Shown: in pieces, positions 63,667 through 63,980 of the stretch
Numbering within the stretch: the stretch's first letter is position 1
How the letters are laid out: every line of letters starts with the position of its first letter
Assembly: GCF_057098645.1 (NCBI RefSeq)
Contig: NZ_CM169472.1
DNA: 64,000 bases
Strand: one strand, 5' to 3'
Notes under the pieces: model-generated
The model's database searches: none
The model's input: the letters and a program-made list of their open reading frames with translations, nothing else
What the model was told of the DNA's origin: nothing
Translations under genes and position numbers: made by a program

Positions 63667-63980
63667 TTGGGGCCAAACTGTCCATATCATAAATAAGTTA
63701 CGTATTTTTTCTCAAGCATAAAAATATTAAAAAACGACAAAAAGCACCTAACTGTTTGATATGTAAATTATTTCTCTTGTAAATTAATTTCACATCACCT
63801 CCACTATATGTAAAGCTAACGTTTCTGTGACTCGACGCCTCTTCCTCATTCTTCTCTCCAAAAACCACCTAGTTCAATATAAAAAACTGCAAATAAAGAT
63901 AACAATAGAATATTAAGCCAACAAATAAACTGAAAAAGTTTGTGCGCGATGCTTTCCTCTATGAGTCAAAATGGCCCCAA
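63667..63980. promoter_or_regulatory. fimS invertible element (fim switch) flanked by 9-bp inverted repeats; internal fimA promoter apparently pointing towards fimE
   Basis: IRL TTGGGGCCA at 63667-63675 and IRR TGGCCCCAA at 63972-63980, 314 bp apart; on the minus strand TTGAGA (63710-63715), 18 bp, TATGATA (63685-63691), reading leftwards through IRL. Confidence 0.8.

Follow-up and report, generated by a model that had tools for sequence, protein, structure and literature searches.

Phase variation through inversion of the fimS element is a textbook trait of Escherichia coli, and the element itself, the TTGGGGCCA sequence of its repeats, and the residues of the Arg-His-Arg-Tyr tetrads of its recombinases FimB and FimE have all been set out (PMC9820224). 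FimE drives the switch efficiently from ON to OFF, and FimB acts slowly in both directions (PMC11316696). One IHF site, IHF-1, adjoins the repeat IRL and a second, IHF-2, lies within fimS, and Rho-dependent termination of the fimE message depends on how the element is oriented (PMC9993118). The fimS of the UTI89 reference genome is OFF (PMC6458436), and the O157:H7 switch has been found experimentally to be locked OFF, with a 16-bp deletion responsible (PMC6765310).

Here we describe a stretch of DNA of 64,000 nucleotides, referred to below as the window, and conclude with high confidence that its positions 63667-63980 are fimS, the phase switch of E. coli type 1 fimbriae, in the phase-OFF orientation. 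The finding is already known, being that of a canonical, already-explained switch in its commonest recorded state, and its importance beyond correct annotation is small. The K-12 MG1655 element (NC_000913.3, 4542682-4542995) is likewise 314 bp long, has identical 9-bp repeats, and lies in equal orientation; it also has the same promoter motif, IHF consensus sites, and recombinases (FimB and FimE) as the window, and it, too, is located between fimE and fimA.

The fimS element and its recombinases

The element measures 314 bp end to end and is AT-rich. It is separated from the fimE stop codon, which ends at 63619, by a spacer of 47 bp that is 1 bp shorter than in K-12. The recombinase genes and the sites in and around the switch are as follows.

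61943-62545, plus strand: fimB, encoding the 200-aa tyrosine recombinase that flips fimS either way; protein 100% identical to K-12 FimB
63023-63619, plus strand: fimE, encoding the tyrosine recombinase that acts mainly from ON to OFF; 198 aa, 100% identical to K-12 FimE
63622-63634, minus strand: predicted IHF-1 site, outside fimS beside IRL; TATCAATAAGTTA matches WATCAANNNNTTR
63667-63675: IRL, TTGGGGCCA, perfect 9-bp inverted repeat of fimS
63686-63715, minus strand: putative fimA promoter motif, with TTGAGA at 63715-63710, an 18-bp spacer, and TATGAT at 63691-63686
63732-63747: the 16 bp deleted in O157:H7 locked-OFF switches, AAACGACAAAAAGCAC, present in the window (three-way alignment, columns 134-149)
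63749-63761, minus strand: predicted IHF-2 site, inside fimS; TATCAAACAGTTA, a match to the IHF consensus
63945-63948: BstUI site (CGCG), the single one in fimS, near IRR in the present orientation
63972-63980: IRR, TGGCCCCAA, 9-bp inverted repeat, the reverse complement of IRL

The arms of IRL and IRR can be extended imperfectly to 22 nt with 77% complementarity. A second perfect 9-nt inverted pair was also found within the same 441 bp, and the repeats alone are no more than is expected by chance. The same holds for the promoter motif alone, as a consensus scan returned four promoter-like sites compared with 1.8 +/- 1.7 in shuffles. We therefore rejected the argument that the repeats and promoter are statistically significant by sequence alone, neither being above chance. 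We accept the element as fimS because of its homology to K-12 fimS and not because of repeat or promoter statistics: it is colinear with the MG1655 element and identical at 301 of 314 positions, whereas only 95 of 314 agree when it is reverse-complemented.

The catalytic residues of both recombinases are present (R47, H141, R144, and Y176 in FimB; R41, H136, R139, and Y171 in FimE), and both IHF consensus matches fall at the positions published in PMC9993118. With intact repeats and intact FimB and FimE, all of the sequence parts that inversion requires are present.

Relative to K-12, there are 13 substitutions in the fimS allele, and 8 of these cluster in the 20 bp at 63871-63890; from this cluster to the BstUI site, the sequence does not differ from K-12. 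The allele is lineage-specific, with differences noted across 63747-63944, and the patch at 63871-63890 differs from O157:H7 too. A G to A change at 63830 (relative to K-12) creates a second HinfI site, GACTC at 63829. HinfI is commonly used to assay orientation, as in PMC6765310, and the additional site would alter the banding in such a phase assay, giving three fragments.

A 16-nt imperfect inverted repeat was also observed across 63622-63700 (TAACTTATTGATAATA and TATCATAAATAAGTTA, 88% complementary). With the switch OFF, one arm falls in the IHF-1 region outside IRL and the other in the -10 region of the putative fimA promoter within the switch; in AT-rich DNA such a pairing may have arisen by chance.

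Promoter direction and orientation

The original prediction, made from the letters of the window, had placed fimA past the right edge, and this is borne out by the O145:H28 strain RM13514, which is identical over 63400-64000. From the O145:H28 genomes that share this identity with the last 601 bp of the window, fimA would start approximately 100 bp past the edge, at the equivalent of window position 64100. In RM13514, fimA begins 120 bp after IRR, and fimA, fimI, fimC, fimD, fimF, and fimH are annotated as intact, without pseudogene flags.

The same prediction held that the only good sigma-70-like promoter of the element is on the minus strand, adjoins IRL, and reads toward fimE, and our consensus scan of 63560-64000 found both the motif and its coordinates to be accurate. 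At 10 of 12 consensus positions, TTGAGA-18-TATGAT is the scanned region's best sigma-70 match, and it lies 11 bp inside IRL, from where it reads leftwards over IRL to the fimE 3' end. Three further sigma-70-like matches each reach 9/12, one of them on the plus strand and the other two on the minus. As sequenced, the motif is thus directed away from fimA and toward fimE. The 30-bp pattern TTGAGA-N18-TATGAT occurs in one copy per locus in 10/10 fim loci fetched, and in the two of these loci that were checked against shuffles the pattern was matched in 0/200. We take it to be the mapped fimA promoter, PfimA, the mapping of which is reportedly due to Olsen and Klemm in 1994. Its conservation and its placement in ON genomes support its assignment as the putative PfimA.

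A literature search for a statement of the MG1655 reference orientation, or for printed promoter hexamers, found none, and we therefore anchored the orientation on the OL20/OL4 PCR and BstUI assay, on UTI89, and on O157:H7. The window fimS is colinear with the UTI89 reference and with the O157:H7 switch. In the published assay, for which the primers are given, BstUI cuts the OL20/OL4 product into 539+187 bp when the switch is OFF and 433+293 bp when it is ON (PMC9993118). We carried out this assay in silico, with OL20 at window position 63408 and the window extended to OL4 with identical O145:H28 sequence. The digest yields fragments of 539+188 bp for the switch as sequenced and of 293+434 bp once it is inverted; for the MG1655 reference, the corresponding fragments are 540+188 as deposited and 294+434 inverted. 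The 1-bp offsets in fragment size are counting and allele differences, and the OFF assignment is unaffected by them.

A natural ON genome provides the opposite configuration. In DETEC-C31 (NZ_CP116197.1), the top match to the inverted 314 bp, both flanks of the switch align perfectly to O145:H28, and the interior does not, being inverted. DETEC-C31 has its flanks and repeats in common with O145:H28, as well as the protein accessions of FimB and FimE. The ON element differs from that of the window in its inverted interior, with the promoter by IRR: TTGAGA-N18-TATGAT lies on the fimA strand beside IRR, and its -10 ends 139 bp before the fimA ATG.

For the window to be in phase ON as sequenced, fimA would have to be driven by a plus-strand promoter near IRR. 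We looked for such a promoter, and the element does contain one plus-strand sigma-70-like match (TTGATA-18-TAAATT, 63756-63785, 9/12). This lone match, however, lies mid-element, approximately 200 bp away from IRR, and does not exceed what chance yields. In addition, three references whose OFF state is known or shown are colinear with the window, which yields the OFF-diagnostic BstUI fragments, and it is the minority genomes that have an inverted interior, with TTGAGA-N18-TATGAT by IRR on the fimA strand. The BstUI fragments, the colinearity with O157:H7 and UTI89, and the flanks and interior of DETEC-C31 refute the ON reading, which we regard as extremely improbable. The comparison with published ON and OFF sequences has thus been made, the window matching those that are OFF (UTI89 and O157:H7), and the predicted OFF phase is upheld by motif direction, colinear references, BstUI pattern, and the natural ON genome alike.

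How this orientation would act on the operon can be outlined from established knowledge, from which we infer promoter activity, binding of IHF and Lrp, and inversion in the present strain. FimB or FimE, aided by IHF and Lrp, would recombine IRL with IRR, and the 314-bp segment would flip. In the OFF state, the promoter would fire across IRL, antisense to the fimE 3' end. Since the promoter faces fimE, the fimAICDFGH operon would be disconnected from it and silent, and no type 1 fimbriae would be made. Inversion would bring the promoter beside IRR, approximately 140 bp upstream of the fimA start codon. It would also link or unlink fimE and a Rho-dependent terminator inside fimS, providing feedback on FimE levels.

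We also searched complete E. coli genomes for both orientations, with the inverted 314 bp as query for the opposite one. The region is present in 4718 of 5426, and among these carriers 4455 (94.4%) have the orientation of the window, 245 (5.2%) have the opposite one, and 18 match neither at >=80% coverage; the 245 match the inverted query end to end. Both orientations therefore occur naturally in E. coli, with identical flanks, and the OFF state is that of ~94% of complete assemblies, including the K-12 and UTI89 references. Ordinary cultures are expected to be mostly OFF because FimE is efficient from ON to OFF and FimB is slow both ways (PMC11316696), and the split of 4455 vs 245 fits this established expectation of an OFF majority.

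Mixed fimS orientations in sequencing libraries have been documented (PMC6458436). Both this report and the 4455 vs 245 split agree with the view that an assembly shows a single state of a mixed population. It is also possible, though we think it the less probable course, that the orientation here was the assembler's choice, the culture being a substantial mix of ON and OFF and the assembly taking one path through a 314-bp inversion bubble. The documented library mixtures lend weight to this idea, as does the finding of both orientations among otherwise near-identical genomes. However, the 94:5 split matches the OFF majority expected in FimE-proficient cultures and suggests that assemblers usually report the true majority state. 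Moreover, an assembler's choice would qualify our main explanation and not contradict it, since the assembled letters have the OFF configuration in either case. In our preferred reading, that of a switch in phase OFF, the assembled orientation is a snapshot of the sequenced culture and no fixed property of the strain, and should not be taken as the strain's phenotype.

IS5 upstream of fimB and the strain background

Upstream of fimB, the nanC-fimB intergenic region contains an insertion sequence and the operators of fimB.

59714-59728: NanR operator, GGTATAACAGGTATA
59768-59790: NagC site fimB1, sequence as in PMC3098098
59979-60001: NagC site fimB2, sequence as in PMC3098098
60094-61289: IS5, 1196 bp, inserted between nanC and fimB with duplication of a TTAG target; transposase ORF at 60162-61142

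IS5 lies 653 bp upstream of the fimB ATG. The NanR operator and both NagC sites are all on the nanC side of it, and the insertion adds 1.2 kb between these sites and fimB. The element is extra relative to the O145:H28 complete genomes, from which it is absent, and the K-12 nanC-fimB region also differs by IS5. An IS5-like element in this intergenic region was found in only ~4 other complete genomes among 5426. It has the same position and orientation as in the window in H15, SL124, and JMF1 (~3-4 of 5426), and in 702/18 it lies ~160 bp further from fimB. TTAG is a recurrent target; at minimum, two unrelated genomes, H15 and SL124, have this site occupied in the same orientation. In JMF1 (NZ_CM139231.1, 4858-5555 of the fetched locus), an IS5-like element upstream of fimB is accompanied by an IS1 between fimB and fimE, and insertion sequences seem to have targeted the fim regulatory region repeatedly.

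Among the IS5-like carriers, fimS is ON in H15 and OFF in SL124, JMF1, and 702/18, four comparable genomes being too few for an estimate of the ON rate. The proposal that IS5 upstream of fimB locks the switch OFF is weakened by H15, in which the switch is ON despite an IS5-like element at this very site. Since H15 was sequenced ON, the insertion is compatible with the ON state.

IS5 relieves H-NS silencing at bgl, flhDC, and glpFK. It is tempting to speculate that IS5 rewires the response of the fim switch to host signals, either by uncoupling fimB, and with it OFF-to-ON switching, from sialic acid and GlcNAc sensing or by relieving H-NS silencing of fimB, although we consider this rather unlikely. 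If it were true, the ON/OFF balance of the IS5 strain would differ from that of other O145:H28-type strains. A literature search on IS5 upstream of fimB found nothing. The placement of IS5 between fimB and its distant operators is only a mildly novel thread, and lies outside the fimS finding itself.

No complete RefSeq genome matches the window throughout. Its last 12 kb are 100% O145:H28-like except for IS5 and one SNP at 62979, and its first 20 kb (1-20000) are best matched by O157:H7 genomes (coverage 87%, identity 98.4%). Sequence comparison thus suggests that the background may be a mosaic or an unsampled strain. The window also contains a defence island at 28789-54909, which includes Druantia type III and has the following components.

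28789-32148: DruH of Druantia type III, full-length PADLOC match
32139-38462: DruE of Druantia type III, full-length PADLOC match
38686-41544: SNF2/DrmD-like helicase
41547-46457: type IIG-like methyltransferase, 1636 aa
46457-52798: second DruE-like helicase, 2113 aa, with a C-terminal HNH match
52795-54909: UvrD/GajB-like helicase

In RM13514 (O145:H28), the type IIG-like methyltransferase is split by an IS3 element, whereas the window copy is intact.

Capacity to invert and comparison with known switches

An OFF orientation could also arise in a lineage in which the switch is permanently locked OFF, as in O157:H7. Over 63400-64000, 23 complete genomes are 100% identical to the window, essentially all of them O145:H28-type and Shiga-toxigenic, and all 23 are OFF. 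This uniformity is what a locked switch would produce, but at the species-wide ON rate of 5.2% the probability of 0/23 ON is 0.29. The count therefore carries no information on locking, and we rejected it as evidence, since it is expected 29% of the time.

Two further features could be read in favor of locking: the 13 substitutions relative to K-12, with their cluster at 63871-63890, and the IS5 that parts fimB from its far-upstream NanR and NagC activator sites and could thereby reduce FimB and, with it, OFF-to-ON switching. Against these, the element is of full length (314 bp), both 9-bp repeats are perfect, and FimB and FimE are identical to the functional K-12 proteins. In addition, H15, with its IS5-like element at the same site and in the same orientation, was sequenced with fimS ON. 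Locking through an O157-type 16-bp deletion was rejected, as bases 63732-63747 are retained, and because this deletion is absent the switch should still invert. A literature search on O145:H28 fimS found nothing. A permanently locked switch in this lineage is, in our view, quite improbable. Most likely, judging by the sequence, the switch would be functional and was simply caught OFF.

The O157:H7 element is like that of the window in its equal orientation and colinear sequence, and the FimB protein accession is common to O157:H7 and O145:H28. The two elements differ in length, the O157:H7 fimS being 298 bp, without the 16 bp equivalent to 63732-63747, and the window fimS being 314 bp and retaining them. 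For this STEC-like strain, the switch is intact and presumably invertible, unlike that of O157:H7, and type 1 fimbriation may still be open to it. Outside the fim locus of E. coli, ipuS and hyxS of UPEC and the fimS of Klebsiella likewise have a short promoter-bearing segment that is flipped between short inverted repeats (PMC6458436, PMC6083910). These, however, are other loci with other repeats and target genes, whereas the element of the window is the canonical fimS and no analogue of it.
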